Positions 5,400 to 52,175 of a DNA stretch of 64,000 nt are shown here, in pieces (position 1 is the stretch's first letter; every line of letters starts with the position of its first letter). Origin of the DNA: a virus. Its lineage: Duplodnaviria > Caudoviricetes. The notes below the pieces were generated by a model. It searched no databases, had not been told where the DNA came from, and worked only from the letters and a program-made list of their open reading frames with translations. Made by a program: the position numbers and the translations under genes. Where the stretch lies: IMG/VR virus record IMGVR_UViG_2895532408_000002, positions 1-64,000 of that record. The stretch is one strand, 5' to 3'.

Positions 5400-5906
5400 T
5401 TATTTTGTTTTATTTAGAGTTAATACTCTTTTGGGTTTATCGGTATTATCCGTCGTGGACTTCTGGCGCATACCACGCCCCACTTTTTGATTTACGATAA
5501 TCCCTTGCTTCTTGGTCTTACGCTTAGCACGCAAGTACATAGAATGTAGTTCAACCATTCGCTTTCTAGCGTAGTCAGATTCAGACTCAGTGACCCTACC
5601 GTCCGGCTTACCCCACAGATTAAAACGCTGGGCTCCGGTGCGAATACGATTAAGGTATTTAATAGAATTAACGTGAAAGCCTATGGCGTCGTACAGCTCT
5701 CTCGAGCTTACTTTCTTCGGAGAGATAACCGCTCGAAGCTGGTCATAAATATCACGACTTAAGGGTTTGTTTGTGAAAATTCTAAATTTATTTTTTCGAC
5801 AATAAGTAACCACCCACAGCCAGCAATGGATAGGTTTTTCAAATTGAAGTTTTTTAGAATTATGTTTAAGGCTGACGCCTTCAATTCCAAAAGTGGCGTT
5901 ATCCAT
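5400..5906 (-). CDS. ProQ/FinO-domain RNA-binding protein
   Basis: KPL...YLNRIRTGAQRFNLWGKPDGRVTESESDYAR matches the ProQ/FinO core; basic tail. Confidence 0.75.
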   Translation of the reverse strand: MDNATFGIEGVSLKHNSKKLQFEKPIHCWLWVVTYCRKNKFRIFTNKPLSRDIYDQLRAVISPKKVSSRELYDAIGFHVNSIKYLNRIRTGAQRFNLWGKPDGRVTESESDYARKRMVELHSMYLRAKRKTKKQGIIVNQKVGRGMRQKSTTDNTDKPKRVLTLNKTK

Positions 5907-22076: not shown

Positions 22077-22380
22077 AATGGTTAGTTAATTTCATCAAAT
22101 TAAGTAAATTAATCGTGGCCTGTTGACTGGCCCCTTTCTCGAGCAACGTTACAATCTCTTGTAAATCGTTTTTTAAGTTGGGGAACACTCTCTCAATAGG
22201 AAACTCGGTCTCACGAAGTATTTCGAGTAAAAAGCTCATAGGAACTTCTTTCGTCCCAGATAAGGCCAAAGAAACTTTGGCTTGATTGCTGTTTAGCGCT
22301 TCAGCAATATCTTTCTGGTTGCGACCTTTTTCTCGTATCGCATTCTTCATCAGCGCGAGTCTTTCTGAAAATTTCAACAT
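22039..22380 (-). CDS. Xre-family HTH regulator
   Basis: KGRNQKDIAEALNSNQAKVSLALSG. Confidence 0.75.
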   Translation of the reverse strand: MLKFSERLALMKNAIREKGRNQKDIAEALNSNQAKVSLALSGTKEVPMSFLLEILRETEFPIERVFPNLKNDLQEIVTLLEKGASQQATINLLNLMKLTNHYDQHSKDTKAAS

Positions 22381-23129: not shown

Positions 23130-23408
23130 TTAAAAATTAGCTTTGATAATATTTATTACCCCAGTGTTAAAGAATTCTGCCAGATTTTGTAAGTCTGTCA
23201 AAGTTATTTCTTTGGTACCTCGTCGTAAGCGACTGAAACTACTACCAGCCATGCTTAGTTTCTTTCTCAACGCTTCCCCCTCGTCTTCAAAGGTGAAAGT
23301 CGTGTGAAAGTCTATTCGCATCCCAATGGCTTTGTGTAGCGGGGATACAACCTCAAGTTGGAGCGAAACCGGCTCCAACTTGGGTTGGTTTTTAGTGTTT
23401 GACGACAT
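23130..23408 (-). CDS. Xre-like HTH protein
   Basis: LRKKLSMAGSSFSRLRRGTKEITLTDLQNLAEFF. Confidence 0.65.
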   Translation of the reverse strand: MSSNTKNQPKLEPVSLQLEVVSPLHKAIGMRIDFHTTFTFEDEGEALRKKLSMAGSSFSRLRRGTKEITLTDLQNLAEFFNTGVINIIKANF

Positions 23409-23685: not shown

Positions 23686-24317
23686 TAAAGTGCTAGGATA
23701 GTTTTTAAATCATAGTGTCTTGCCTGAACTCTCGTTCCAGTTACCGCTTCAAAATGATTTAACGGTAAACGGTACTTCCTAGCAAAGTACTGGCAATATT
23801 CACTACGCTTGGCAAGGTACTTTTGATATAGGTCCCCTTTAATTTCTTCTGGCCTACGTACACCATAGACACTTTCAAAGTAACTATAAACGTGTGCCGG
23901 AAGATGCCAATATCTTGAGGGATAGTGAAACATAGGGTTTGCCCAGTTAAGCGTTTCACTATCCATTGTCTTTTGTTTTCCTGGGGGCCAAAGCGGGTAG
24001 GTTATCAATAAATAATCAGGATAAATTAAACACCACATCATCTTACTGACCTGAATATTTATCTTTTGCCCCTTTACATCAATAACCAGACGAGACTTTT
24101 CTAGTCCCGTCTCAAGGTTCCCCCAAGTCTTTACATGCTGGAAGTCTTCCCGCGCCAACTTAAGTTCTTCATCCCAGTCTAAATCTGGGAACTTATTTGC
24201 AACATAGGCTTTCAGCTTTTTGTAAATAAGGTGAACAAACGGCGCATCAAAAGACTTATCCCAGTAGAACAAGCTACGTTGTAATCGAAAAACATTATCA
24301 CGACGTAGCTGAGCCAT
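23682..24317 (-). CDS. Hypothetical protein
   Basis: 211-aa ORF coupled to the ligase stop. Confidence 0.65.
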   Translation of the reverse strand: MAQLRRDNVFRLQRSLFYWDKSFDAPFVHLIYKKLKAYVANKFPDLDWDEELKLAREDFQHVKTWGNLETGLEKSRLVIDVKGQKINIQVSKMMWCLIYPDYLLITYPLWPPGKQKTMDSETLNWANPMFHYPSRYWHLPAHVYSYFESVYGVRRPEEIKGDLYQKYLAKRSEYCQYFARKYRLPLNHFEAVTGTRVQARHYDLKTILALY

Positions 24318-25492
24318 TACAGGTCCTCACGAATACGGGAATTAGTGATATGACAGGGTTTACCTTCTTTGGTGTATCCAAATGAGAATACGGTGAGTTT
24401 CTTACCAATATTCTTATGACCGTTTACAGCATGATCGTGTTTCTCATTCGCATCCCCAGGCGCCGTAACATCAAACGTTTTACCGTCCTCCGTTTGGCAG
24501 ACATAAATACCGACCTCGGTACCTAGGCGCTTATTAGGTTTACCCTTACGGATACCAATAATTTCAAACTCGGCGTCTTGTTCGTCTTTTCTCTTCATCA
24601 GCGATGAGCTGCGCTTATCCGTTTCGTAAGAGGCATTCCCTTGGCGAACCATCGTGCCTTCATAGCCGTTAGAGGTCCAAGCCTCGTGGTACTTGTCAAT
24701 ACCAGCTTGATCCATAACTTTGTAACACGCCGTTAGACACAGGGTAGGGTAAGAGCTTTCGGTTATACGAGAGTCCAAGTAATCAAATCTATCAGCGTAA
24801 GGAAGACCAAGAACAACATCATAAATATTGTACGACAGGTATTTACTGTCTTCTTGTGGCTTCTTGATAAGACTCGAAATATTTTCAAAGGCTTTACCAT
24901 GGCAGTAAAGCTCACCATCCAACGTTGTGCCATCCCAAATACCTGTATCGTAAAGGAACTGTAAGCGTTCCATGATGTGAACAACCGTAATTGGCTTACC
25001 ACCTCTTGAATAAAGAAATACCTTTTCATCTTGTACGGTTGCAAGGCAGCGGTGGCCATCCATCTTAGGTTGAACAAAAACAGGGAATTCCCAATCTTTT
25101 ACCTTATCAATCGGCTGGGCCAACATGGGTTTTACCAACCCAAGGGCATTTGTTACCGCGGCACCTTCTTCGGGTTGCTCTTCAACATAACCTTTATCGA
25201 GCTGTTTTTTTACTTTACTTTGTGCTTCAAAAACAGCTTGCATAAGTGGCGTGGTTTCGTTGCTGCGGCCAAGGTTCTTGCCTTCGGTGTAATCCGTTAG
25301 GGTTTCAACGCCCTTACCACCTATAACCTTGCAAGAGGTGACAAGCGTGCTGGCAGTCCCATCCGCATTAAGGGTAGTTTTGATATGCCAAGAGCCCACC
25401 TTTCCGCCCGAGTGGACTTTAAAGAGTGTTTGTTCAAAGCGAACGTCGGCATCTAAAGGAGTGGTGCTAGAAGTATTAGCGGGAATATTCAT
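24317..25492 (-). CDS. ATP-dependent DNA ligase
   Basis: QPKMDGHR motif I, LDGEL, YEGTMVR, LMKRK. Confidence 0.92.
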   Translation of the reverse strand: MNIPANTSSTTPLDADVRFEQTLFKVHSGGKVGSWHIKTTLNADGTASTLVTSCKVIGGKGVETLTDYTEGKNLGRSNETTPLMQAVFEAQSKVKKQLDKGYVEEQPEEGAAVTNALGLVKPMLAQPIDKVKDWEFPVFVQPKMDGHRCLATVQDEKVFLYSRGGKPITVVHIMERLQFLYDTGIWDGTTLDGELYCHGKAFENISSLIKKPQEDSKYLSYNIYDVVLGLPYADRFDYLDSRITESSYPTLCLTACYKVMDQAGIDKYHEAWTSNGYEGTMVRQGNASYETDKRSSSLMKRKDEQDAEFEIIGIRKGKPNKRLGTEVGIYVCQTEDGKTFDVTAPGDANEKHDHAVNGHKNIGKKLTVFSFGYTKEGKPCHITNSRIREDL

Positions 25493-25537
25493 ATCGTCAA
25501 TTTCCAAATTTTAAAGTTAAGCCCGTAGGCAGAGTTA

Positions 25538-25566
25538 AAACTACGCTTTCAACTTTTGTATATCAA
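25538..25566 (-). promoter_or_regulatory. Candidate sigma70 promoter of the replication operon
   Basis: TTGATA-17-TAGTTT in the AT-rich divergent intergenic region. Confidence 0.45.
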
Positions 25567-25723
25567 GTCAAAAACGAAGCTACATTATAAAAACACAATT
25601 AGATTGTGCTTTTAATATTTATTAAAAAAATCTACTTTCTTTAATTTATTTAATTGTTTAGAATTTATACGTCTTTATTTTGTAGTAAAAGATTTACACT
25701 ATGGCCCTGATGGAGTATTCGCC

Positions 25724-26044
25724 GTGTCGAAAAAAATTGACGATAACTTAGAACCACCTTGGGAGCTAGAGAGGCGTCGTCTCATAGCTCGTAAATTTAA
25801 AACTATGCGTCAGAATTACCGTCTGACTCAAGAAGAACTAGCTATTGCTGCCGACGTTCACAAGAACACAATCTCAAATGCTGAACGTTACGGCAAAATT
25901 TCATCTGAAGAATTCTATAAATACCAGCAAATTGCGAAGCGTGCTCACATGAAAAAGGGTCTCGGTTCTGTTGTGAGTAAGATTACGCTATCCGACATAC
26001 CATTCTCAGATTTTAAACGCTTTCTAGCGACCTTTTGGGAGTAA
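25724..26044 (+). CDS. Xre-family HTH regulator, candidate phage repressor
   Basis: RQNYRLTQEELAIAADVHKNTISNAERYG; GGAG RBS; divergent from the replication operon. Confidence 0.8.
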   Translation: MSKKIDDNLEPPWELERRRLIARKFKTMRQNYRLTQEELAIAADVHKNTISNAERYGKISSEEFYKYQQIAKRAHMKKGLGSVVSKITLSDIPFSDFKRFLATFWE

Positions 26045-26046
26045 TC

Positions 26047-26805
26047 ATGTACCGTCACTTCTTTACTCGATATGGGGGTAGATTCACACTATTCCTTACG
26101 TCTTTGCTAATTTTTACTTCTGTGTTAAACCGCTTTCTTGTTGAGGGACAGTGGGAATTGAAATCCTTATCTGACTTACTCAGTTATTACGCCGTTATGT
26201 TTTCGTGTATCATTATAGCTGGCGTAATGGTTCGTGGTTTTAACAACCGTATTGTTTTGGCCTTGATAATCATTGCGTCTATTTCAGAGCAAATAATCTC
26301 TAGCCTAATGTTTTCTATAAGTCCCACACTGCATACGGCTATTGCTATGACGTATGTGCCAGGGATTATCACCATGTTTTTGTATCAATATCGGGTACAG
26401 TTCCAGTTTTGGTTGGCAAACAAACTGATCCAATCTGAACGGTTTAGAAATAAAGGATTGTACTTATTAGATAAAACCGAAGACACCAATCTAGGAACAG
26501 CGATAAACATCATTAATAAATTAGGCTGGGTCGTCTGCTTTAGTATTGCGACGTACTATCATATCTTTACGATTCATTTTGGAATTCATGAGACTGGCCC
26601 ATTACTATATGGCTATCGTCTTGTAGATATCGAGTATGCTTTACACCTACCAAGCTTCTACTTTTTGTTTAATATCGTGTTCGTTACTCAGACAATTATG
26701 CTTCTAGGTTTACTCTTCCATGCCAGTATTCAGGAGTTCTATGTTAAGGACCTCGCTGGGTCGATACCTAAGAAACTTGAGGTACTATTTAAAAGAGCGG
26801 CTTAG
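26047..26805 (+). CDS. Polytopic membrane protein (about 6 TM segments), function unknown
   Basis: Six hydrophobic stretches; GGGAG RBS overlaps the end of the HTH gene. Confidence 0.8.
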   Translation: MYRHFFTRYGGRFTLFLTSLLIFTSVLNRFLVEGQWELKSLSDLLSYYAVMFSCIIIAGVMVRGFNNRIVLALIIIASISEQIISSLMFSISPTLHTAIAMTYVPGIITMFLYQYRVQFQFWLANKLIQSERFRNKGLYLLDKTEDTNLGTAINIINKLGWVVCFSIATYYHIFTIHFGIHETGPLLYGYRLVDIEYALHLPSFYFLFNIVFVTQTIMLLGLLFHASIQEFYVKDLAGSIPKKLEVLFKRAA

Positions 26806-26820
26806 CCGCTCTTTTCTTTT
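26791..26820. terminator. Bidirectional intrinsic terminator
   Basis: AAAAGAGCGGC-TTA-GCCGCTCTTTT between convergent genes. Confidence 0.85.
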
Positions 26821-26973
26821 TTAGAAACCGACTGTTGGCTTCTTAGGCTTAAGCGACTTTGTTTTAGGGTTGTCCGCGGGCTTAGGCACAACTACGTTAC
26901 TCTCAACATCAGCCATAGCCATTGTTGAACCCATACCAAGTACTAGCGCGATTGCGAATCCTAATTTCTTCAT
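26821..26973 (-). CDS. 50-aa secreted peptide precursor, not in the ORF track
   Basis: MKKLGFAIALVLGMGSTMAMA|DVESNVVVPKPADNPKTKSLKPKKPTVGF; GGAG RBS; Sec signal n/h/c regions with A-x-A site; stop abuts the terminator. Confidence 0.85.
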   Translation of the reverse strand: MKKLGFAIALVLGMGSTMAMADVESNVVVPKPADNPKTKSLKPKKPTVGF

Positions 26974-27065
26974 TGTGTTTCTCCATAAGAGGTTTAGTTG
27001 TTTTCTATGGAGTCAATTGCAATGCCTGTGCCTAAACGAAAGTCTAAGGTTTCAGGCTATAAGGA

Positions 27066-27116
27066 GTGATATACGAGGCGAAATGTTGCCATAGACCGGC
27101 AACATTTCGATATCAC
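27066..27116. other. Long hairpin separating the accessory operon from the peptide gene
   Basis: CGAAATGTTGCC-7-GGCAACATTTCG with outer GTGATAT/ATATCAC; no U-tract. Confidence 0.6.
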
Positions 27117-27954
27117 TATAGCAGTATTGGTAGTTCTGTTGCCAGTTCGCGACGTTTCAACAGCGGGACTTGGTTTTTTATCCAAGCTTTAATTTTTTCA
27201 ATTCGACTCTCCGCCCGACTTTCTTTGTGTCTAGCTACAATGGCCAAAGCCTCAGATAACGCCCAACCTTCACCGTTAGGGCCAATATACCCCCAGCAAG
27301 ATTCATCAATATCGTGACCTTCAATAACGTAACCATAGGCGTCACCCTCTAGATATGCCGCATATGTTTTTACTTCGCTGTCTAAGAATTCGTAGACCTT
27401 TTGAACACGTTCTTTTGTGAATCGATTAAAACCATACTCTTTACGGGCTTTATCTTTGCTAACGTAGATAAAACCGACTTGGCCAGAATCCCAAGAGCAC
27501 GAGAAACCACCCTATTCATCGTAATACCTGAATGGTCGTATAAGTAAAGCGGCAGGATAAAGTAGTATTTCTCAAGTCTTGCTGCAATCTTCGCCTCAAC
27601 CAATTCTTGGTACGACTTCGTACCTTGAGCATCCCAACTTGTTGAAGGCCAGTTATGTTCGAATCTTTCCAACATAGCTTCAAACCCTGGCTCAACGGCC
27701 TCAACCATCCCAATACGATAGTCGTCGTAGCTTACTGAAGGTTGTTCATCCCCTAAGTTATATCTCCTATGCCAGCAGACCATTGTGCCTACGTTGTCCC
27801 ACTCTCGAGGGCTTTCTATATCTCCATCCCGCTCAATCTTAATAGTGATATCTTTTATCTGTGTCTCAGACTCACCAATCAAATCAAGGGCCTCAAAAGC
27901 TATTCCCAACTTCTGGCAGTTTGTTTTCAGTTGTTTTGTTAATTCAGGGTGCAT
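27116..27954 (-). pseudogene. Hypothetical gene interrupted by a frameshift near 27510
   Basis: LYLYDHSGITMN continues as GFSCSWDSGQVGFIYV in another frame, open to TAG at 27116. Confidence 0.7.
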
Positions 27955-28013
27955 CGTCAATCTCCAACAAGTTAATTACAAAGGGGGGAGAACATTCCCC
28001 CCCTTTTTAAGGT

Positions 28014-29028: not shown

Positions 29029-30061
29029 TTAAATACTGCCGCAACCTTCAGAGCGGAACGCACCTACAGGCATTTCCCAGTCGTCAGGGTGGCAGAATAT
29101 CGGTAAAAGATATTCGGATTGCTGGGCTTGGGCCAGCGCTGCCGAGTCCGTTATTTCTAACGGTTCGTTGAGTGCCGCTAACTCAGCAATATTTTTCTTG
29201 CTGCGGCTAATGGTTGTGTTGAATTGCTTTTCGTAATCCAACACGGTTTCAAAACGTTCACGAAAGTATTTCTTCATAGTGGCCCATATACTCCCGTGGT
29301 TATAAATACACGCTTGGCAGCTTGAGCGGTTCCAGCCTAAGCGATAGGGGACTGGTGCGACTACACCCGCTTGTTTTAAGGTGTCCCAGACTTTTTGTTC
29401 TGACCACTCGAGAACCGGACGCCAAGCATCAACGTGTCGAGCTGTTCTTCCATACCGAGTATCACAAGCATGAGGTTCTAGCTGATTGTACTTGGCGCGA
29501 TTACTCGACTCTTCACGACGTTCCCCTGTAATCATTAGTGTGCGCTTACCCTTAAATCGGTCTTGGTTATTCAAAGCGCGTCTAGCTACGTCAATTTTGA
29601 GTGCTGAGCTACACCATCTTGTTTGGAGACTCGCGGATTGTTGAGGGAACCTTAAACGGGTAGCGGGTTTAGAACGCTTCAAATCTCTTTCCAGAACCAA
29701 CAAACCGTCTGGTGTTTGCGTGAGTATCGGTTGACTGATAGTGTTTTCTTTCAGCATTTCACCTTCGAAGCCCCCCCTGCAGCCAACTAAAGTACAGCGG
29801 CAGACCCATAGAGGCACAGGCTTTCTTTGCATAGTCTGAAATAAAAGCCCAGTCCATGAGGTTAGAACCTTCACGGCCATCGACTTCATGGTGCCATATT
29901 TCTATTTTCTTTCTGTCTGCACCTTCAGCCAGGATATGAAGTAATGCGGCCCAGCTATCTTTCCCCATAGAGTGACATACGATAATGTGATCGTAGCTAT
30001 CTAGGTCCACGCTTGGCGCATGAAAGTATGTATCATCTTGTAATACTAGTTTCGTTTGCAT
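29029..30061 (-). pseudogene. PAPS-reductase-family (PP-loop) protein split by a frameshift in a G7 run
   Basis: SMGKDS in the 5' ORF; ITGERREES, WRPVLEW, YRLGWNRSSCQAC in the 3' ORF; C7 at 29771-29777, and G6 would restore LQGGFEGE. Confidence 0.8.
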
Positions 30062-30115
30062 CGTCAATTTCCAACAAGTTAATTAAAAAGGGGGGAGAAC
30101 ATTCCCCCCTAAGAT

Positions 30116-30307
30116 TTAGACCAATATCCAGTGGCCTTTAAGTTTGTCTCCTTCAGATACCGCATCCAGAAACCCTTCGGTTTGATTATCTTCTAGGGCT
30201 TTAGAAATCTTGGGTAATACTTCTGCCGTCAACTTCCGGTCTAGGTTTGGGTTTACTTTACCTTTGGCCTTATACATATACCGCCACTCAACTTTTAAGA
30301 TAGCCAT
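30116..30307 (-). CDS. Hypothetical protein
   Basis: 63-aa ORF with GAGG RBS. Confidence 0.55.
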   Translation of the reverse strand: MAILKVEWRYMYKAKGKVNPNLDRKLTAEVLPKISKALEDNQTEGFLDAVSEGDKLKGHWILV

Positions 30308-30309
30308 GA

Positions 30310-30927
30310 CTACGCCTCATACCGCACGATTTTCGTGAAAACCTTACAAGTGCTAAACGTGTCACTAGGTAACGTCTCGATTTCCTCATAACTGGGGTGG
30401 TCGAACGAATTTGGTACCACAGCAATAAGGACCCCTGTGAAGCGGAGTAACTTGCGTGCGGCCTCCATATGCGCTTTTACCTGTTTGAACGGTGGGTTCA
30501 TTATGATTTTTTCATAACGATACCCTGCGTTGTAACGGGCCTCAGCCCAGCTAAGAAAATCTTCGTGGTGCACTAAAGGCACTACACCATCACAATCCTC
30601 GCTACAAAACCGCTGCAGTAAGGCTTGAACTAACGAATACTCACGCTCGACAATAGTTATATCGTCGGCTTGGTGACCCACCGCTTTAACAGCCTGAACC
30701 AAATTACCGGTTCCCCCTGAAGGTTCTAGAACCTTATCGTCGGATTCCAACTCCAACAGCTCGACCATACGCTCAGCTATCGCCGGAGGCGTAACGTGGC
30801 ATTCCGTTGAGGCATGAACCACAACAGGTTTTGGGGCCTCGGAGAACTCGATAGGTTCGAGTTCTACTTTTTCCGGTGCGGTAACATGCTTTGGTTTATT
30901 GGGTCTTACGTAAACAGATGAATCCAT
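30310..30927 (-). CDS. SAM-dependent amino methyltransferase
   Basis: VLEPSGGTG, IIMNPPF. Confidence 0.85.
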   Translation of the reverse strand: MDSSVYVRPNKPKHVTAPEKVELEPIEFSEAPKPVVVHASTECHVTPPAIAERMVELLELESDDKVLEPSGGTGNLVQAVKAVGHQADDITIVEREYSLVQALLQRFCSEDCDGVVPLVHHEDFLSWAEARYNAGYRYEKIIMNPPFKQVKAHMEAARKLLRFTGVLIAVVPNSFDHPSYEEIETLPSDTFSTCKVFTKIVRYEA

Positions 30928-32312
30928 TAGGCTGTCTCCACTTCCACATACTCAAGAGCGGTTGAATTTGGCGCGGCGTGCGTCTTCGAGTCCGTTAGGT
31001 AAACTGCAGACCATTCGCCTTTCCAGTAGTCCTGTCCTTCAGGAACAATACGGCAAACCTTTACTCTGAACTGACCACATGAGCTCGGCTTCACGCCTCG
31101 CTGTTCACTATGGGTAGCTGAGTAATCCGCTTTCGTCATTGAGACGATAGAGTACTTGTTTACGTTGCCCCACATTTTCACCGTCACGCTTTTTACTTCT
31201 TCTGGTGATAGGTTAAGAATCGGTGGAGCCTTAGGCTTAGGTACCGGTACTTCATAGCCCACATCCATCATTAAGTCGCGCCATGCCATTTCTTCAAGTT
31301 CAAGGGTTGAGCCGGTACCAATGTGGATAGGTAGGTCGTTGTCACACTCCACAATCCAGCCAAAGTCCGACTTAGTAGCTTTCGGTTTATCCGCGCCGTG
31401 TGTTCTAAGGAACGTCTGCAATAATGGAGCGGTAATCTTCCCCGTGTAGTACTCGACTTCCCCCAATTGAGCACGTTCGTAAGTAAGACGATTCAAGATA
31501 TGGTTTATCTTGCGGTGTAAGTTTTGGTCGTTCTTACGTTTGGTACCTAACTCAATATTGGCGTCGATAATTTCCAATAAAGGTTTCTTATCTTCTTTAA
31601 TGTCGCGGTAACTATCTGAAATGCAGATATCCCAACGGTAATTCGCAATCATCAAAGCAAAGGCCTTTTGCTTCTCGGCGTCCTCCATACCTTTACAGCG
31701 TTCCCAAAGAGATAAACAATCGCCAGCGGCGTGCAAATAACGCTGTTGCTTACGTAAATCCGTAAGTAGCGTTTTAATGCGACGGTAGATAACGTCAGGG
31801 CGATTTTTGTGGTTAGCGTGAGCAATGGTACCCATCATGCGCCAGTTCCAATAGCGAACCGCTGAGCTGGCTTCCTTGGCGCGTTCTTCGTTTCGCTCTT
31901 GCGCTTCTTGCGCTTTTTGCATTTTACGCTGACTGTGATGGCCCATGAGAATAGGTTGATCACCAAACTCCATACTGTTCGCAGCGGCACTAAAACCTCG
32001 TGCTTGGTCAGCACGCTTTTCAGCAAGGGCTCTTAGACGCTCAGCCTTCACTTCTGCACGTTCGGCCATCGTCGTGTCTTCAGGTTCAATCGTACCGGCC
32101 AAGCGAATACATAAATCTTCCGCTTCAGGGGACCAAGAGGGTTTAACGAAGAGTTCTTGTTTTGGCGCCCAACCAAAGCCCAGTTCCTTAAGCTCGTTAT
32201 AAAGGTCGGTGTCTAAGCGGCAGAGCGGATAAATACGCAACTTGTTATCTTCAGGTGAGTAAGTGGCGCGTTCGATATCTTCGTGTTTTGTAGCAATAGT
32301 TTGATTAGTCAT
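30927..32312 (-). CDS. DUF3560-like protein, coupled to the methyltransferase
   Basis: ATYSPEDNKLRIY...GDQPILMGHHS...YW, a pattern recalled from plasmid/ICE proteins. Confidence 0.65.
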   Translation of the reverse strand: MTNQTIATKHEDIERATYSPEDNKLRIYPLCRLDTDLYNELKELGFGWAPKQELFVKPSWSPEAEDLCIRLAGTIEPEDTTMAERAEVKAERLRALAEKRADQARGFSAAANSMEFGDQPILMGHHSQRKMQKAQEAQERNEERAKEASSAVRYWNWRMMGTIAHANHKNRPDVIYRRIKTLLTDLRKQQRYLHAAGDCLSLWERCKGMEDAEKQKAFALMIANYRWDICISDSYRDIKEDKKPLLEIIDANIELGTKRKNDQNLHRKINHILNRLTYERAQLGEVEYYTGKITAPLLQTFLRTHGADKPKATKSDFGWIVECDNDLPIHIGTGSTLELEEMAWRDLMMDVGYEVPVPKPKAPPILNLSPEEVKSVTVKMWGNVNKYSIVSMTKADYSATHSEQRGVKPSSCGQFRVKVCRIVPEGQDYWKGEWSAVYLTDSKTHAAPNSTALEYVEVETA

Positions 32313-32381
32313 AATCGTCAATTTCCAAATTGTAAAAGTTAATTGAAGGGGGAGAACATTCCCCCTAGCGTTGGTTAGAGT

Positions 32382-32597
32382 TTAAAGGTTTTTGAAATAC
32401 TCCGATTGCTCTATCAAAACGTTAAGTTTTTTCTGGTCTTCAAAGTTTGGCAAGTCTACAGGGCAACCATCACAGTCTATCAATCTGAACTTGCCGTTCT
32501 TTTTGCTTAAGCCCCAAGACACTTTATCAATGTCAAACCAATCAATGGTATCGTCGTCTTGAGTGTAATGTTGCGTTTCAATATGTTTCACTTCCAT
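32382..32597 (-). CDS. Hypothetical protein
   Basis: Single ORF between two dyad repeats. Confidence 0.6.
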   Translation of the reverse strand: MEVKHIETQHYTQDDDTIDWFDIDKVSWGLSKKNGKFRLIDCDGCPVDLPNFEDQKKLNVLIEQSEYFKNL

Positions 32598-32648
32598 ACG
32601 AGTTCCTTTTGTAAAAGTTAATTGAAAGGGGAGAACATTCCCCCCTAG

Positions 32649-33800
32649 TTAAACGGCTGCAGCAATCGCTTTTGCTTCAGCCAGGACCTTTTCTTCTTCC
32701 GCGAGTTCTTCTTCAGATAACTCGATCCCCGCGTCTTTAGCCATTTGATAGTACGTCATTCTCACCGCAACCGCATTACTCTTCATTTTGTAGTCATGAG
32801 ATACGCAGCGATGTTCCCACTTGCCGTTGTCTTTGTCGAAGTAGTGCCAGTTTTTCTCGTTACTCGGGCTACTTTCTTCTAAGAAGTTACTTAGCACTTC
32901 AGGGCCAATTTCAAGTTCTTCCGCTTTTCGAAAGAGCAGGGCCAAAGCCTTCAGTGTCACTGTGAAAGGAAGAATATAAAATTGTCTCGTGAACTGCGCC
33001 GACGGGTGTATATATTCCTTACAAACGTGAGGGTGTGACGTATACAACTGCCGTAGTTTTTGACTGATAAACATTTTGTCTAAGAAGACTTTTAAATATT
33101 CCGCCATGCGCTCCGGTGAGTTGTCTTTACCACAAAATAGCTTGGCAAACTCATTGAGCTGTTTTAATGCCCAGAATTTCTCTGAGTCCCCCGTACAACT
33201 GTTCTTCTCATACTCAACCACCGCACGAATATCCGAAGCCTGTACCGTATCCATCAATGTCGACGCTATCGGGTCCGCGTTGTTGTATGCAATGCGGATA
33301 GAGTCAACCGGTACCTTTTGCATCGAGTTAATATCATGGAATGCCTGTTGTCTTTCCGATAAATCCAGCATCGGGAAAAGCATAATTGATACTTGGCTGT
33401 TTTGAAGCATCGGATACTCTTGCAAAGCAAGCTGAACCCCTTTGGCTCGGTGCTGGCCATCAAACAAAAGCATTTGAGCATCTAGGTCCACACGCAGATG
33501 GCCTATATTTCTATACTGATCCATTTGCACTTCAACGAAGTCAAAGTCTCCCTCCAACGAGCCCACTAAAGGTGGAACGACAAACATCGTATCGTTTTTA
33601 TGGTTCTCGATTAGGTACTTTGCGAACTTCTTAGCACGCGGGACATTTACTAACCGTTGGCTACGTTTCGTAATATCCCAGTGGTCATCTAGTTTCAAAA
33701 GCGAACTCAACTGGCGCAAAGGAATTAGCACTTGGTAAAAAGGTCTTGAACCTTGCACGCCTCGAGAGGCCAGGAGTTTGTATTCAATTTTATCCATCAT
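32649..33800 (-). CDS. DGQHR-domain protein (DndB-like)
   Basis: SQRLVN..RAKK, PPLVGS, FDGQHR, FHDIN. Confidence 0.85.
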   Translation of the reverse strand: MMDKIEYKLLASRGVQGSRPFYQVLIPLRQLSSLLKLDDHWDITKRSQRLVNVPRAKKFAKYLIENHKNDTMFVVPPLVGSLEGDFDFVEVQMDQYRNIGHLRVDLDAQMLLFDGQHRAKGVQLALQEYPMLQNSQVSIMLFPMLDLSERQQAFHDINSMQKVPVDSIRIAYNNADPIASTLMDTVQASDIRAVVEYEKNSCTGDSEKFWALKQLNEFAKLFCGKDNSPERMAEYLKVFLDKMFISQKLRQLYTSHPHVCKEYIHPSAQFTRQFYILPFTVTLKALALLFRKAEELEIGPEVLSNFLEESSPSNEKNWHYFDKDNGKWEHRCVSHDYKMKSNAVAVRMTYYQMAKDAGIELSEEELAEEEKVLAEAKAIAAAV

Positions 33801-33803
33801 AAT

Positions 33804-34031
33804 TTAGTTCTCGTCTATAAAGTCGTCAGGGTCAGCGGTAATTTTCAAGTGAACTTGAACGCGCTTACCTTTGTGTTCAATCGTGGAGAGCCAAACTTCA
33901 ACGTCGGTACCCGTTTCATCAATGTAGTCTTGGGTCAACTCTCCGATCATTTGGTTGAAGTGAGAAGATTCCTCACAGATGATTTGCCCCAGAGTCACAT
34001 CATAACCAGGGTTTTCGCAATGGTTCTTCAT
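33804..34031 (-). CDS. Small acidic hypothetical protein
   Basis: Coupled ORF. Confidence 0.55.
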   Translation of the reverse strand: MKNHCENPGYDVTLGQIICEESSHFNQMIGELTQDYIDETGTDVEVWLSTIEHKGKRVQVHLKITADPDDFIDEN

Positions 34032-34831
34032 GCGGCCACCTGTTTAGTTCGGCCATACGTTTTATGGCGTAGTTCTCGATAACCGTGACTGCTCAAGATA
34101 TTTCTAGTCTCGGAAGTGATAGACCACGTAGAACAGAACTCAGTGCGTAGCCCGATACCTTGATAGTCTTTGCGCTGACCCGCCGTATTTATCATTCGGT
34201 CAACAACCAATAAGTCGTGGGGATATCCCTTCACGAACCATTCGATTTTATTGCCGAACTCGGTTAATACGTCTTCAAAAAACACCATACCCGTGTCGTA
34301 GGCCAGCGTGTCTTTGGCAATAACGAAACTATATAGCGCGGCAAGAAAGATATCGGCATTAGCAATATCGCCACCCCAACGCCAGTCATGGTCTGGATGC
34401 GTCGGCGCTCGAGACTGACTTAGAATTATTCGGTGAGGTTGTGCACTTAACATCAAGTCAGTTAAAGCTTTCGATAAACTCACACCGCGAGGGACAATAA
34501 ATTTCTTACTGCTTTGGTGTAGCTTTACACGCCACTTGTGAGCCGTGCGATTGCCTAAGTTGATAAGTTTTTCACTCATCATTTGTAACTTTTCTTCCCA
34601 GCTCAAAACTGAATACTGCTCGGAATACACACTTACCGCTTGCTTAAGATGAAAATCAAATAACTGGCGTAACTTGTCGTGAAGGTCTTCAACGGTACCG
34701 GTACCATCTGAGCCAAATCGAGAGGTGTTATCTTCTAAGAACTTTACGAAGCGTGGTTGTGTAATCGCGTCAGCAATTACAAATAGCATCGTGGCCGTAG
34801 CCTGTTTATTGATACGTTTAACATCAGTCAT
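34028..34831 (-). CDS. Hypothetical protein
   Basis: ATG after start motif and dyad. Confidence 0.65.
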   Translation of the reverse strand: MTDVKRINKQATATMLFVIADAITQPRFVKFLEDNTSRFGSDGTGTVEDLHDKLRQLFDFHLKQAVSVYSEQYSVLSWEEKLQMMSEKLINLGNRTAHKWRVKLHQSSKKFIVPRGVSLSKALTDLMLSAQPHRIILSQSRAPTHPDHDWRWGGDIANADIFLAALYSFVIAKDTLAYDTGMVFFEDVLTEFGNKIEWFVKGYPHDLLVVDRMINTAGQRKDYQGIGLRTEFCSTWSITSETRNILSSHGYRELRHKTYGRTKQVAA

Positions 34832-34890
34832 GATCGTCAATTTCCAATTTTAAAAGTTAATTAAGAGGGGGGAATATTCTCCCCCGAGCG

Positions 34891-35169
34891 TTACGACTTT
34901 TCAGGTCGTTCGAACTTCTCACCACAATAGCAGCAATGGCTTGCTATTATCGTTATTGAATCTTTCTTAAGATTCTTTTGCGGGGTACCGTCTCGCTTCA
35001 TAGGCCGATACTCGTAGTCAATTTTAGGACTGGTTGGAGCATACTGACCTTCCGCAAGCATATAAGCTCGGCCCTGCCACTCGGCTTTAAAGTCTTCCAC
35101 GTTGTCCGGCAATTGCGCTTTAATATGCTCGGTTACTTTTTCCATCGTTTCTTCAAAACAATTACACAT
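34891..35169 (-). CDS. Hypothetical protein with terminal Cys motifs
   Basis: MCNC...CCYCG. Confidence 0.65.
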   Translation of the reverse strand: MCNCFEETMEKVTEHIKAQLPDNVEDFKAEWQGRAYMLAEGQYAPTSPKIDYEYRPMKRDGTPQKNLKKDSITIIASHCCYCGEKFERPEKS

Positions 35170-35180
35170 CGTCAATTTCC

Positions 35181-35423
35181 TTAGCTTGCAGCCCGTATCG
35201 GGCTATGGGGGGTTACTTCATACCAATCGTAGAGCTTCATAGTCTCTCGACTATAATCTCGCTCCCACGTTCGGCCATTTGCATCTACTAAACAGTAAGG
35301 CACTTTACGTCGCTCACACATGCTGTCGGCGTGCTCTTTTGCCTTATCCGGACTCGGAGCAAAGAACTCTTGAGTCCGTCGCTGATGTGTGAACCTGTCG
35401 TGATACACCAGTTCGTACTTCAC
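35181..35423 (-). CDS. Hypothetical protein
   Basis: GTG start with AAGGTGG upstream. Confidence 0.55.
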   Translation of the reverse strand: MKYELVYHDRFTHQRRTQEFFAPSPDKAKEHADSMCERRKVPYCLVDANGRTWERDYSRETMKLYDWYEVTPHSPIRAAS

Positions 35424-36323
35424 TTAAGCCACCTTGTCTAATTTTTTACTTTGTTGAAAATAGCGGTACAACTCGCCGCCTACCCATTCACCTTTCGGCA
35501 CTGACACACCATTACCAATCTGGCGATATGCTGACGTAGCCGATACTGGGAACGTAAACCAGTCTGGTACTCCCTGCAGCCTCGCATACTCACGCACCGA
35601 GTAAGGACGAACACCCATTGGGAATCGCTTGTCAGCAACCAAGCGCGTCGATTTGTCCTTGGCATAGTGAGCGACACACGTTGGCGCTAAATCCCCTTTG
35701 CTCGGGTCGCTGATTATTGGGAGGTCGCGGTACTTACCCGTCATTCTCGCTTTAATAGCACTAGGCAACGTTACTTCTGGGTCATGCTCGACAATCTCAG
35801 CCAGCGTCACCGGACGACAGTTCTTAGGGGGGCGAATTTCAAATGGTCTGCGGGTACCAAAAATAATCAGACGATCTCTTCGCTGGGGTAACCAATGCTG
35901 GGATTGCACCGGGCAAAAAACGTGAACATAGTAATCCGGCAACTTTGTCATAGCCTCCATTACTAGCGGGAACGCTCTCATTCCTGGCACATTTTCAACC
36001 ACGTAAGCATCGGGCTTGCGAATGGCCAAGTGACGCAAAGCATGAAGGAATAAATCGTCACCCGTTCTTACACCATGAATATCACCTATCGTGGAATATT
36101 TGGTGCAAGGGTAGGTGAAGATCATGGCATCACATTCTTCTTGGTTTAACACCAGCTCTTCGGTCAAGTCGCATTGTTTGATATGGTGGCCAATATTCTC
36201 GCGATACGTCTTAACAGCATCGTTATCAATTTCAAAAGCTTGGTTTATTGTTAAACCCGCGTTTATTAGCCCAATATCCATAAGGCCGGCACCACAAAAA
36301 TAACTGTTTACATTTATTTGCAT
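35424..36323 (-). CDS. DNA cytosine-C5 methyltransferase
   Basis: FCGAG, YPC, VENV, QRRDR, RLQG, QIGNGV. Confidence 0.93.
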   Translation of the reverse strand: MQINVNSYFCGAGLMDIGLINAGLTINQAFEIDNDAVKTYRENIGHHIKQCDLTEELVLNQEECDAMIFTYPCTKYSTIGDIHGVRTGDDLFLHALRHLAIRKPDAYVVENVPGMRAFPLVMEAMTKLPDYYVHVFCPVQSQHWLPQRRDRLIIFGTRRPFEIRPPKNCRPVTLAEIVEHDPEVTLPSAIKARMTGKYRDLPIISDPSKGDLAPTCVAHYAKDKSTRLVADKRFPMGVRPYSVREYARLQGVPDWFTFPVSATSAYRQIGNGVSVPKGEWVGGELYRYFQQSKKLDKVA

Positions 36324-36353
36324 CGTCAATTTCCAAATTTAAGAGTTAATTGT

Positions 36354-42240: not shown

Positions 42241-42301
42241 ATCGTCAATTTCCTAAGTTAATTAATCGGCTCACGCCGTAACACCCCGAAGGGCGGATTT
42301 A

Positions 42302-42330: not shown

Positions 42331-42828
42331 TTGCAATGGTCTGATTAGGACCAAAAACACAATTTTGGTGTGGTTCAAATTCACAGGGTTTTGTTGGTCG
42401 TTGCGACAGTGAGGACCACCCGTGAATTCAAAATCCCTGTCGCGCAAAAGTTACAGCTCGTCACGCAAAGGTCGTTTGCCAGATCACTGCGGCTTGCAGC
42501 AAGTCACAAGGAGGAACACGGACAACGCTTGTAAATAATCCTTGGCTACGAATTAAAACGAAAGCGAAGTTTTTAAAAGTATACTTCTTAAAAAATGTTC
42601 CCAGTAAAATATATAAATGTACATTTAATAACGAAAGTTTGTGGGAACATTTTTGTCACCGGCTCTGTAGGCCTTATCCACCACGGCATTGCGAGTAATA
42701 AATACCCTCACCGAAGTTACGCGTAACTGGTCAAATTTCGCACAGCTACAGGCCGCATTCTACCGTTCGAGCATTTCGCAAAAAACGCTGAGAAAGTTTA
42801 TGAGAACACAAAACCTAAGTTATTGAAT

Positions 42829-45323: not shown

Positions 45324-45520
45324 GAGACGTTCAACGTAATCAGAGGTCGTTGTGCGTAGGATAAGCTTGAAACTAGGTATGTATACAGGAGTACAAAAGT
45401 TAGAACAGCTTTATCGTCAATTTCCAGATTGTAGGAGTGGTTAAGGTGTCGAGCCCCCACTCGGTTGATTAGCCTTTAAAGGTGTATGTGCATATACAAG
45501 ACTTTATTTGCTGTCAACGC
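45288..45520. ncRNA. Candidate regulatory small RNA carrying an orphan copy of the start motif (strand unresolved)
   Basis: TTATCGTCAATTTCCAGATTGTA at 45411-45433 with no start codon; flanking hairpins; terminator; TTGACA and TTGACC boxes on the minus strand. Confidence 0.45.
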
Positions 45521-45719
45521 CAACTAAAGTATAAAATTTTTCTTAAGTGGTCAAGCCAGTAAATAGGGGTTTACCCCCCGTATTCATAGGATAAGCTTAA
45601 AGCATTAAGCTCTTCAGCATGATTCTAAACACACAATTAAACTGTGTTTACCTAAGAATACAAATAGACAAACTGAAGCGATTTACACACACCCTAATTG
45701 TGTGAACGAAAAATTAAAA

Positions 45720-45751
45720 AAGCCAAAAATAATTTAAATTATTTTTGGCTT
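45720..45751 (-). terminator. 32-bp perfect palindrome, probable terminator of the primase gene
   Basis: AAGCCAAAAATAATTTAAATTATTTTTGGCTT followed by a T-run on the minus strand. Confidence 0.6.
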
Positions 45752-45798
45752 AATAAGGTTTTGATTGTTTAGTGTCCGGTTATTGGCCTATCCGTGGC

Positions 45799-50696: not shown

Positions 50697-50714
50697 CAAT
50701 TTGGGAAATTGACG

Positions 50715-52175
50715 ATGGCCGGAACAATACTTAGCAAGCTCAAGGTAATTGTGCCTAATCGGTTTAAGCCGAAAGGGAGTACACAAACTGCGACCTATAA
50801 CGCAGAAAACAATACGGAAGTCCTATCGCTCCCAGATTATCGGGAACACTTAGAAGATATTTATTCAAGTCGAGTTTCGGATAACTCACAAGAACTCATC
50901 ATGAAGCTTGTTAAGTCCGATCCTGACGCTTCAGCAGCCCTAGGTGCGTACTTAACCACTGCCGGAAGCGCTATCCCTTATATTGTTGTAAAAGACCCTG
51001 ACGGAGCGATTGACCGCGACGGGGCCAAGATAGTCAATGAGCTTATTGAAGCCCTCGAGACCCGTCGGGATTATTCTAAAGGTTACTTAAGACCTAAAAC
51101 GCTTCGAGAACTCTCCGAAGAGTTCCGCTATATGTTATTGGCCCGTGGCGGTATAGGGTGTGAAACCGTATTTGGGGACCAGCTTCAATTAACTGAGCTT
51201 CGTAATATTGATATGGCCAGTATTCGATGGCAAGAGAAAGAGCCAGGGAAAATGGTACCTTGGCAAGACCAAGGCGGCGGGGACCCAATAAAGATGGATA
51301 TCCCGTCGTTCTTCGTAGCGTGGTACCGAAAGTCACCTATAGAAGCCTATGGCCATAGCCCATTTGTTAGCGCAATTAATACCATGGCAGCAAGGCAACA
51401 GGTGATTAATGACTTGTATCGAATCATGCAAGTTACAGGGTTCCCGCGAATCGCTATCAAGGTACTTGAAGAAGTCTTGGTGAAAAATGCCCCCGCGGAT
51501 GTTAAGGCCGACGCACAAAAACTAAGAACCTATATTTCTCAACGCCGCCAAGAGATTGGAAGCGCGTTTGCTTCGCTGCGTCCAGACCAAGCGATGGTTC
51601 ACACCGACAGTGCGGAAGTCTCAATGCTGAATGAAAAGAACCCTGCTACAGGGATTAAAATTCAGGAAGTGATTGATACGCTAAACGCGCAAAACCAAGC
51701 CGGTTTAAAGACGATGGCTACGGTATTAGGGAGAGGCGAATCAGGGGTGAATACAGCTACGGTTGAAGCGAACTTATTTGCTAAAGCAGCGGATAGTTTG
51801 AATGAACCTATCGGAGAAATCCTCGGTAGTATGCTGACGATGGCCTTGCGTATGCAGGGGTCAGAGAGTCGAGTTATTGTTAGGTTCCCGAATATTGATT
51901 TGCGCTCAGAGCTTGAGCTAGAGGCACAATTGAATTTGAAATCTAACCGCTTGCGCACGGACCTGAGTGATGGCTTGATAACAGACGATGATTATCATAT
52001 CGCCATGTATCGTCGAATCCGTCCTGACGCTGTACCGGAGTTGAGCGGGACTGGTTTTATTGGTGGCGCTATGGAAGTAGACGCTGAAAAAGTGAGCCCT
52101 AATTCTGACCCACAAGGACGCTCAGTTAGTCGCGCTTCAGACAAAAGTGCGAAGTCTAACGCTAACCAGTCTTAA
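50715..52175 (+). CDS. Portal protein
   Basis: 486 aa directly after terminase; position and size. Confidence 0.7.
   Translation: MAGTILSKLKVIVPNRFKPKGSTQTATYNAENNTEVLSLPDYREHLEDIYSSRVSDNSQELIMKLVKSDPDASAALGAYLTTAGSAIPYIVVKDPDGAIDRDGAKIVNELIEALETRRDYSKGYLRPKTLRELSEEFRYMLLARGGIGCETVFGDQLQLTELRNIDMASIRWQEKEPGKMVPWQDQGGGDPIKMDIPSFFVAWYRKSPIEAYGHSPFVSAINTMAARQQVINDLYRIMQVTGFPRIAIKVLEEVLVKNAPADVKADAQKLRTYISQRRQEIGSAFASLRPDQAMVHTDSAEVSMLNEKNPATGIKIQEVIDTLNAQNQAGLKTMATVLGRGESGVNTATVEANLFAKAADSLNEPIGEILGSMLTMALRMQGSESRVIVRFPNIDLRSELELEAQLNLKSNRLRTDLSDGLITDDDYHIAMYRRIRPDAVPELSGTGFIGGAMEVDAEKVSPNSDPQGRSVSRASDKSAKSNANQS

Follow-up and report, generated by a model that had tools for sequence, protein, structure and literature searches.

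We analysed a stretch of viral DNA of 64,000 nucleotides (hereafter the window), which is the first 64 kb of the 75,951-bp virus record IMGVR_UViG_2895532408_000002, classed as a provirus and 94% complete. The locus of interest holds three genes. A gene of 106 codons with a GTG start, encoding an Xre-type helix-turn-helix (HTH) protein, lies at 25724–26044 on the + strand. It is followed on the same strand by a gene for an orphan inner-membrane protein of 252 amino acids with six predicted transmembrane (TM) helices (26047–26805, with a longer start at 26035). Facing both of them on the − strand is a small gene (26821–26973) for a 50-amino-acid precursor of a peptide that is predicted to be exported. 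A sequence-only reading of the window had reported these three open reading frames (ORFs), and all are present where it had placed them. It had also held that the HTH and membrane genes are the sole convincing rightward genes in the first 48 kb, which agrees with a greedy map of the window: apart from them, the + strand of 1–48817 has only two ORFs that shadow − strand genes and six of 38–45 amino acids. The same reading proposed that the three genes form a peptide-sensing switch between lysis and lysogeny. Our analysis points to another arrangement, in which the membrane and peptide genes make up an optional cassette inserted behind a probable prophage repressor.

The small ORF has the features of a translated gene. 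The motif GGAGA stands 6 nt upstream of its ATG, and residues 1–21 have the n, h and c regions of a signal peptide, with a cleavage site between AMA and D. By this rule, cleavage would give a mature peptide of 29 residues, rich in Lys and Pro, cationic and ending in KKPTVGF; the ribosome-binding site and signal peptide claimed earlier are thus upheld. To measure selection we used an alignment of the window with five relatives (L006, L007, L008, L010 and L012), which are 84–87% identical to the window and 92–95% identical to each other. In the 29 codons of the mature part there are 13–15.5 synonymous and 2–3 non-synonymous changes, with a synonymous divergence (pS) of 0.64–0.75, a non-synonymous divergence (pN) of 0.03–0.045 and a pN/pS of about 0.05; for the peptide gene as a whole, pN is 0.02. 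Because synonymous changes far outnumber non-synonymous ones, the small ORF is a protein-coding gene under purifying selection. The last 11 residues, SLKPKKPTVGF, are invariant in 12/12 variants, all from one narrow lineage. The signal-peptide codons together with the 5' region (26911–27037, − strand) have a pS of only 0.07–0.14, and no stretch of the locus is more conserved than 26888–27037. RNA structure was considered as a reason for the low synonymous divergence of the signal-peptide codons and was ruled out (z 0.30). The peptide had been called unannotated, and this holds in a relative sense, since it is present in public protein sets, where one variant occurs on 453 contigs. It contains no Cys, which rules out a lipoprotein or spanin. 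The best ESM Atlas score for the peptide was 0.79, to an unnamed cluster, and could not be used.

The signals around the peptide gene suggest that it is controlled separately from the two genes that face it. The HTH and membrane genes are 2 nt apart with no terminator between them. An intrinsic terminator hairpin lies between the convergent genes (26791–26815, + strand); its 11-bp stem has 6 G-C pairs and is followed by CTTTTTT, and it is invariant in 4/4 aligned sequences. The sequence-only reading had described a shared bidirectional terminator. The T-run is there on the + strand, but on the − strand just TTTT follows the hairpin, so that the terminator is weaker in that direction. On the − strand, a sigma-54-type −24/−12 element, GGCAC-N5-TTGC (aGGCAC-AGGCA-TTGCa, 27019–27032), ends 46 nt upstream of the peptide ATG. 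It has the GG at −24 and the GC at −12 in the TGGCAC-N5-TTGCW spacing of such promoters, and is the single match in the window, where 0.42 are expected by chance. The element occurs once and at the same position in 15/15 cassette-bearing loci, which represent the window and five distinct relatives, and is absent from 3/3 loci without the cassette (L001, L014 and L015). In the relatives the spacer varies, and GGCAC and TTGC are retained. The scan for sigma-70 promoters gave none for the peptide gene. No Sigma54_activat domain was found in 5 phage records, so an activator from the host would be needed. Further upstream there is an inverted repeat that is unique in the window, AAATGTTGCC-N7-GGCAACATTT (27081–27107). 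Its arms are invariant, 6/7 loop bases differ in the relatives, and no T-run follows on either strand. The repeat may be the site of an enhancer-binding protein or, alternatively, a hairpin in the RNA at the end of the 288-codon gene that lies beyond it.

For the membrane protein we take the ATG at 26047 as the start, because every homologue begins with MY.HF; this ATG is 2 nt past the HTH stop and is preceded by GGGAG. Hydropathy and the positive-inside rule predict six TM helices with both termini in the cytoplasm. The AlphaFold2 (AF2) model is helical, with a predicted local distance difference test (pLDDT) of 72.4. In the alignment described above, the gene has a pN of 0.11 and a pN/pS of about 0.15. 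The protein is rare. When 1.84 billion representatives were searched in full with HMMER, homologues turned up in 5 clusters, the most distant of them 30–39% identical, and a word-index search gave 7 proteins. The three distant homologues (P0008, P0010 and P0011, 30–39%) come only from assembled public runs. Two scans of genome contigs for distant homologues gave nothing, as did a viral scan with P0008, and viral and metagenome scans with the alignment of the family returned only the close lineage. The membrane protein had no match in Pfam (E ≤ 0.1), PHROG, PADLOC or NCBIfam, and the three distant homologues had none in PADLOC or NCBIfam. The Pfam result covers the SdpI family, of which Pfam presumably includes a model. 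Foldseek with the predicted structure gave best E values of 0.62 (PDB) and 0.088 (BFVD), which is helical-bundle noise, and a VIA wide search reached a best Z of 7.7, within the helical noise as well. The best ESM Atlas score, 0.88, led to an unnamed cluster and was not usable.

Conservation within this orphan family is unevenly distributed across the membrane. The motifs GFNNR, EKTE(D/E)TN and QE.YVKDL.G..P are on the predicted cytoplasmic side, and family-wide conservation peaks in cytoplasmic segments, namely GFNNR, the N-terminal tail and the tail containing QE.YVKDL.G..P. Identity to the distant homologues is 0.83 in cytoplasmic loop 2, 0.59 in the N-terminal tail and 0.45 in the C-terminal tail. 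For the large periplasmic loop 5, of 28 residues, identity is 0.92 within the clade with the invariant peptide tail but 0.37 to the distant homologues. This pattern would fit, though weakly, a protein whose inner function is conserved and whose outer face is specific to the clade.

The membrane and peptide genes belong to an accessory insert of about 1.07 kb (26045–27115), which extends from the HTH stop to the stop of a convergent 288-codon backbone gene and comprises the membrane gene, the terminator and the peptide gene with its control region. Using a homologue of the HTH protein that is 68% identical, we found two sister phages, L014 and L015 (records of 75,962 and 65,125 bp), which have the same order of ligase gene, gap and HTH gene. 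In both of them only 2 nt separate the HTH stop from that of the convergent backbone gene, here of 281 codons. The insert is present in 6/8 related genomes, the window and five distinct relatives, and both genes are missing together from the other 2. In searches of five whole records, the peptide was found in 3/5 (G001–G003, which served as positive controls) and not in G004 or G005, and the membrane protein was likewise not in G004 or G005. Wherever both genes could be looked for, no genome or contig had one without the other. The longest contigs for both proteins are equal in size (194254, 187918, 128418, 23813, 3817 and 3098), which suggests the same pairing on further contigs of a 73–75% clade. 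One of them, of 194,254 bp, carries a copy of the whole cassette (P0003 / P0051 / P0066) and is labelled Tenacibaculum sp. KUL113, a Bacteroidota name, whereas all else ties the phage lineage to Alteromonas; the label may be wrong or the culture may have been mixed. The backbone gene that borders the insert (27116–27960, − strand) is split in the window by one frameshift near 27512, with residues 3–156 and 158–288 in different frames and 85–88% identity to the relatives. The frameshift is either an assembly error or the mark of a pseudogene.

The insert also differs from the rest of the phage in composition. Its G+C content is 0.36–0.39, and that of the whole genome is 0.449. Most genes of this phage have a motif, GAAATTGACGAT, that abuts the start codon on the coding strand, usually as (A/T)G-GAAATTGACG-ATG. 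The window has 52 matches at ≤2 mismatches (7.25 expected) and the whole genome 58; examples are 25493–25504 (−), 42241–42252 (−) and 50705–50716 (+). The membrane and peptide genes have ordinary Shine-Dalgarno sites and no GAAATTGACGAT motif. The lower G+C, the ordinary Shine-Dalgarno sites and the missing motif point to acquisition from elsewhere, and a separate, horizontally acquired two-gene cassette would fit them. Morons are presented as independent units in the relevant part of PMC3594210. The insert resembles them in that it is present or absent at a gene boundary between otherwise collinear phages, has a terminator of its own and a predicted promoter, the sigma-54-type element, and deviates in composition.

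It is possible that the two genes are unrelated morons which arrived on one piece of DNA, and that the membrane protein, the peptide and the HTH protein act independently. The genes are convergent and have separate promoters of different types, their divergence is unequal (pN of 0.11 for the membrane gene and 0.02 for the peptide gene), and just one presence/absence event was observed. On the other hand, both genes co-occur wherever this could be checked, in the window, in 5/5 relatives and by equal-sized contigs in the 73–75% clade, and no intermediate with one gene was found. We regard this explanation as unlikely, and continue to treat the membrane and peptide genes as one cassette.

A small exported cationic peptide that adjoins a multi-pass membrane protein, with both gained and lost together, also resembles a toxin with its immunity protein. 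The peptide would then be a bacteriocin-like weapon, or an envelope toxin acting on its own cell, freed as a fraction of the lysogenic cells lyse, and the membrane protein would protect the lysogen. Through its coupling to the repressor gene, the putative immunity gene would be on in every lysogen, with the peptide under separate conditional control; the part of PMC2910880 on the sdp genes gives a precedent in the toxin SdpC and its membrane immunity protein SdpI. However, Pfam, PHROG and protein searches gave no similarity of the peptide to known bacteriocin or microcin families. A 29-residue periplasmic peptide has no evident exit from a Gram-negative cell except lysis. The Pfam scan of 8 neighbouring proteins and 53 further window ORFs showed no genes for peptide processing, maturation, export or transport. 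The strong purifying selection also comes without the diversification often seen in toxin–immunity pairs. A toxin–immunity pair is therefore quite improbable in our estimate, and the moron-like cassette behind a repressor is preferred to it.

The switch proposed by the sequence-only reading requires that the three genes stay together, and they do not: L014 and L015 keep the HTH gene alone. The peptide travels with the membrane protein, as the reading expected, but the HTH gene occurs without the pair. Since the sister phages keep the HTH gene by itself, the HTH protein is not a dedicated partner of the other two. The expected co-variation of peptide and membrane protein was not seen either, as the peptide tail stays invariant while the membrane protein diverges.

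What survives of the idea of a switch is a possible relay like that of Sdp, the cannibalism toxin, immunity and signalling system of Bacillus subtilis. The periplasmic peptide would bind the six-TM protein, whose conserved cytoplasmic motifs would hold the Xre repressor at the membrane; expression of the operon would then be raised, or the prophage tipped to induction, so that a host sigma-54 signal would be coupled to the phage switch. The layout matches that of sdpRI and sdpC as given in the part of PMC2910880 consulted here, with regulator and six-TM genes in one operon that converges with the gene for an exported peptide; this likeness is one of layout only. In both membrane proteins, moreover, a conserved cytoplasmic loop is placed between TM4 and TM5 (PMC2910880, same part, for SdpI). 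In addition, the family-wide motifs of our protein are cytoplasmic, periplasmic loop 5 is conserved within the invariant-tail clade and not beyond it, and the peptide and membrane genes are gained and lost together. But the host here is Gram-negative and the genes are carried by a phage; the regulator belongs to the Xre type, where Sdp has one of the ArsR type, and is found without the pair in sister phages; the membrane protein has no Pfam match; and the peptide tail is constant while the membrane protein varies. The precursors differ too: 50 residues with predicted Sec cleavage here, against a larger precursor processed with helper genes in Sdp. We consider such a relay very unlikely.

Arbitrium (AimR-AimP-AimX) is described for Bacillus phages only in the relevant part of the review PMC11945551. 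Like our locus, it has a short precursor, encoded by the phage close to a regulator of lysogeny, that begins with a signal peptide and is conserved at its C-terminal end (PMC11945551, same part). Unlike arbitrium, the locus has no RRNPP/TPR receptor, as the sequence-only reading had noted and as the Pfam scan of the same neighbouring proteins and window ORFs confirmed. The peptide gene converges with the regulator gene instead of following it. In arbitrium the C-terminal end of the propeptide is the signal and differs between phage groups; here it does not vary among the relatives, all from one narrow lineage, and so would not mark specificity. The cell has an outer membrane, no route of import or processing was seen, and the HTH gene is kept without the peptide in sister phages. 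Arbitrium is not a fit, and the reading of a repressor followed by a moron-like cassette is taken up again below.

The HTH protein on its own falls just below the Pfam cut-offs, with 22.3 bits for HTH_31 (cut-off 27) and 21.9 bits for HTH_3 (cut-off 23), both with E of about 2e-4. Its L014 homologue reaches 26.8 bits for HTH_3, above the cut-off, and the six-frame HTH_3 match of the gene passes only together with its neighbours. Judged from these profiles, the protein is Xre-type, borderline by its own sequence and clear together with its homologues. The best PHROG was phrog_7950, annotated as a transcriptional repressor (7e-6), and the best solved relative of the HTH profile in PDB was the controller protein C.BclI (E 2.4e-4). 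The AF2 model has a pLDDT of 50.3, too poor for a fold search. The relatives that we found are 68–95% identical and belong to one Alteromonas phage lineage; there was no match to the HTH protein in 50,697 phage records. Searches of the phage collection with the locus, as DNA or protein, and with the membrane and HTH proteins were negative. The gene is under strong constraint (pN/pS of about 0.05 in the alignment). Short Xre-type phage repressors and controller (C) proteins are likewise single HTH domains of about 100 residues without an S24 autocleavage domain; in the HTH protein, a C-terminal part of about 40 residues is unassigned. Peptidase_S24 (PF00717) was absent from 5 related phage records, three of them 100% complete, with positive controls in 11/14 genomes. 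As judged by this domain search, the HTH protein is not an autocleaving repressor of the CI/LexA type, in agreement with the earlier statement that no S24 domain or CI-type repressor was seen.

Since the gene is kept alone at the same place in the cassette-less sister phages, it is by this comparison a regulator of the phage backbone. It is the sole HTH gene on the + strand and the sole rightward regulator, and a conserved, AT-rich gap with a palindrome separates it from the divergent early operon. For these reasons we think that it may well be the maintenance repressor of the prophage, with a confidence slightly above even. Codons 3–7 of the HTH gene (25733–25744, +) contain a copy of GAAATTGACGAT with one mismatch, followed by AAC and not by ATG, and the L014 HTH gene has a degenerate version at the same place.

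The gap between the ligase gene (24317–25507, −) of the leftward replication operon and the HTH gene is an AT-rich divergent control region (25508–25723). The AT-rich character noted earlier is confirmed by a G+C of 0.31–0.32 over 25400–25849. Among six aligned genomes this is one of the most conserved parts of the locus, with invariant columns of 0.92–0.95 at 25486–25575 and 0.92 at 25606–25695. A palindrome search found in it a 17-bp candidate operator, ACACAA-N5-TTGTG(C), at 25593–25609. In L003–L005 its arms are retained and the spacer is altered, and in G001–G003 a perfect copy adjoins the HTH gene. Two related palindromes, ACACA-N7-TGTGT, are intergenic and lie after the primase terminator (45631–45647 and 45687–45703); they could serve as the operators of a second leftward promoter. 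A weaker one is at 42357–42372. Sites equivalent to the 45.6-kb pair are found in G001–G004, about 17–20 kb from the HTH gene. The palindrome family has 8 distinct sites where 0.84 are expected by chance; the three fully palindromic sites are all in intergenic control regions, and their positions are kept in relatives. The intergenic region 45500–45760 also contains a strong − strand terminator hairpin (45721–45752) and a block, GTCAACGCCAACTAAAGTATAAAA, conserved in three phages, and is probably a regulated early promoter region.

The backbone that carries these genes is temperate, given the tyrosine integrase gene at 1–1239 (−), the integrase in 4/5 related records and the provirus class of the record. 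PHROG and Pfam scans of the window showed, besides the integrase, a long run of leftward genes for replication, recombination and DNA modification, among them those of SbcCD, primase-helicase and DNA polymerase, and from 48894 on rightward structural genes for terminase, portal, major head protein and tape-measure protein. By terminase, the closest named phages are siphoviruses of about 80 kb such as Pseudoalteromonas phage KB12-38 (50% identity). Related records of 80–83 kb are complete, with terminal repeats in two. The HTH protein is 94% identical to WP_282765387.1, recorded from A. macleodii. Thus we are dealing with a temperate, integrase-bearing, siphovirus-like phage of about 76–80 kb, and the host of this lineage is Alteromonas. 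Ligase matches to Alteromonas podophages had suggested a lytic N4-like phage, which is ruled out by the presence of an integrase, a tape-measure protein and structural genes of the siphovirus type.

In phage lambda, rexA and rexB lie behind cI in the immunity operon and are expressed in the lysogen. A similar arrangement would account for our locus. The HTH repressor would be transcribed against the early genes from the conserved AT-rich control region, and may act on the ACACAA-N5-TTGTG palindromes there and in the second early promoter region some 20 kb away. The membrane gene would be read through from the repressor gene and so be made in the lysogen, as rexAB is with cI. The peptide gene, with its own sigma-54-type promoter and a host enhancer-binding protein, would be expressed only under some host signal; Sec would export the peptide to the periplasm, where it would be cleaved to the 29-residue Lys/Pro-rich form. 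Together the two products might alter the envelope of the lysogen, either in superinfection exclusion or in another lysogenic conversion. Exclusion would be the most likely function. Inner-membrane prophage proteins that block DNA entry, such as P22 SieA and HK97 gp15, are described in the relevant part of PMC10883804. The lambda cI-rexAB, HK97 gp15 and P22 SieA loci share with ours an accessory membrane-protein gene right behind the repressor gene, on the strand expressed in the lysogen. As in morons, the cassette is optional, brings its own terminator and differs in composition. In contrast to the known exclusion proteins, our protein has no sequence match to any of them, with fold searches at the level of helical noise, and the cassette adds a predicted sigma-54-driven exported peptide that rexAB and the exclusion systems lack.

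A moron or superinfection exclusion, which the sequence-only reading had listed as alternatives to its switch, is therefore judged the better reading. From the gene layout and the comparisons, we favour a moron-like envelope cassette that would be transcribed behind, and together with, the gene of a probable prophage repressor, and not a lysis–lysogeny switch; our confidence in this only just exceeds an even chance, and several results speak against it. By sequence families, the membrane protein resembles no described exclusion or defence protein, and its fold searches gave helical noise. C.BclI, the best solved relative of the HTH profile, is a restriction-modification controller and not a phage repressor, and two weak HTH_3 matches are present on the − strand (22207–22347 and 23163–23234). 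For the HTH gene and its operon, scanning for sigma-70 promoters gave no site. The palindrome is not in the HTH–ligase gap of L014, although the L014 HTH protein has an identical recognition helix; the link between the HTH protein and the operator is therefore weak, and another protein may bind the palindromes. The sigma-54 match is not significant alone, since 36/100 shuffles give at least one. Finally, with five relatives 92–95% identical to each other, the data on selection and co-occurrence amount to effectively one deep comparison and one presence/absence event.

Some further features of the phage were seen during the analysis. A cluster at 29029–36329 (−) contains genes for a PAPS-reductase-like protein, a DndB-like protein (PF14072, 9.8e-52), a DUF3560 protein and three DNA methyltransferase-like proteins, and is probably an anti-restriction DNA-modification module. 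The phage encodes a ProQ/FinO-domain protein at 5400–5906 (−) (PF04352, 5.4e-12). Many 'TTG' starts in the ORF lists are the GAAATTGACGAT motif read as codons. The record stops within an open tail-fibre-like ORF of 706+ amino acids (L021 9834–11951, G000 73834–75951), which means that the provirus is truncated on the right. No transfer RNA (tRNA) genes were found in 64001–75951.

The membrane–peptide pair is a real, conserved and unexplained add-on of this phage. Even if it is an ordinary moron, it joins an orphan family of membrane proteins to a predicted periplasmic peptide under sigma-54-type control. The phage lineage is common in marine Alteromonas, where one peptide variant occurs on the 453 contigs, and the cassette may provide this ecologically important host with a new function in exclusion or conversion. 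If the Sdp-like relay were true, the locus would be a peptide-based decision circuit of a phage unrelated to arbitrium, in which information on the envelope or the population would feed into immunity or induction. Peptide control of phage decisions would then reach beyond the Gram-positive hosts named in the relevant part of PMC11945551.

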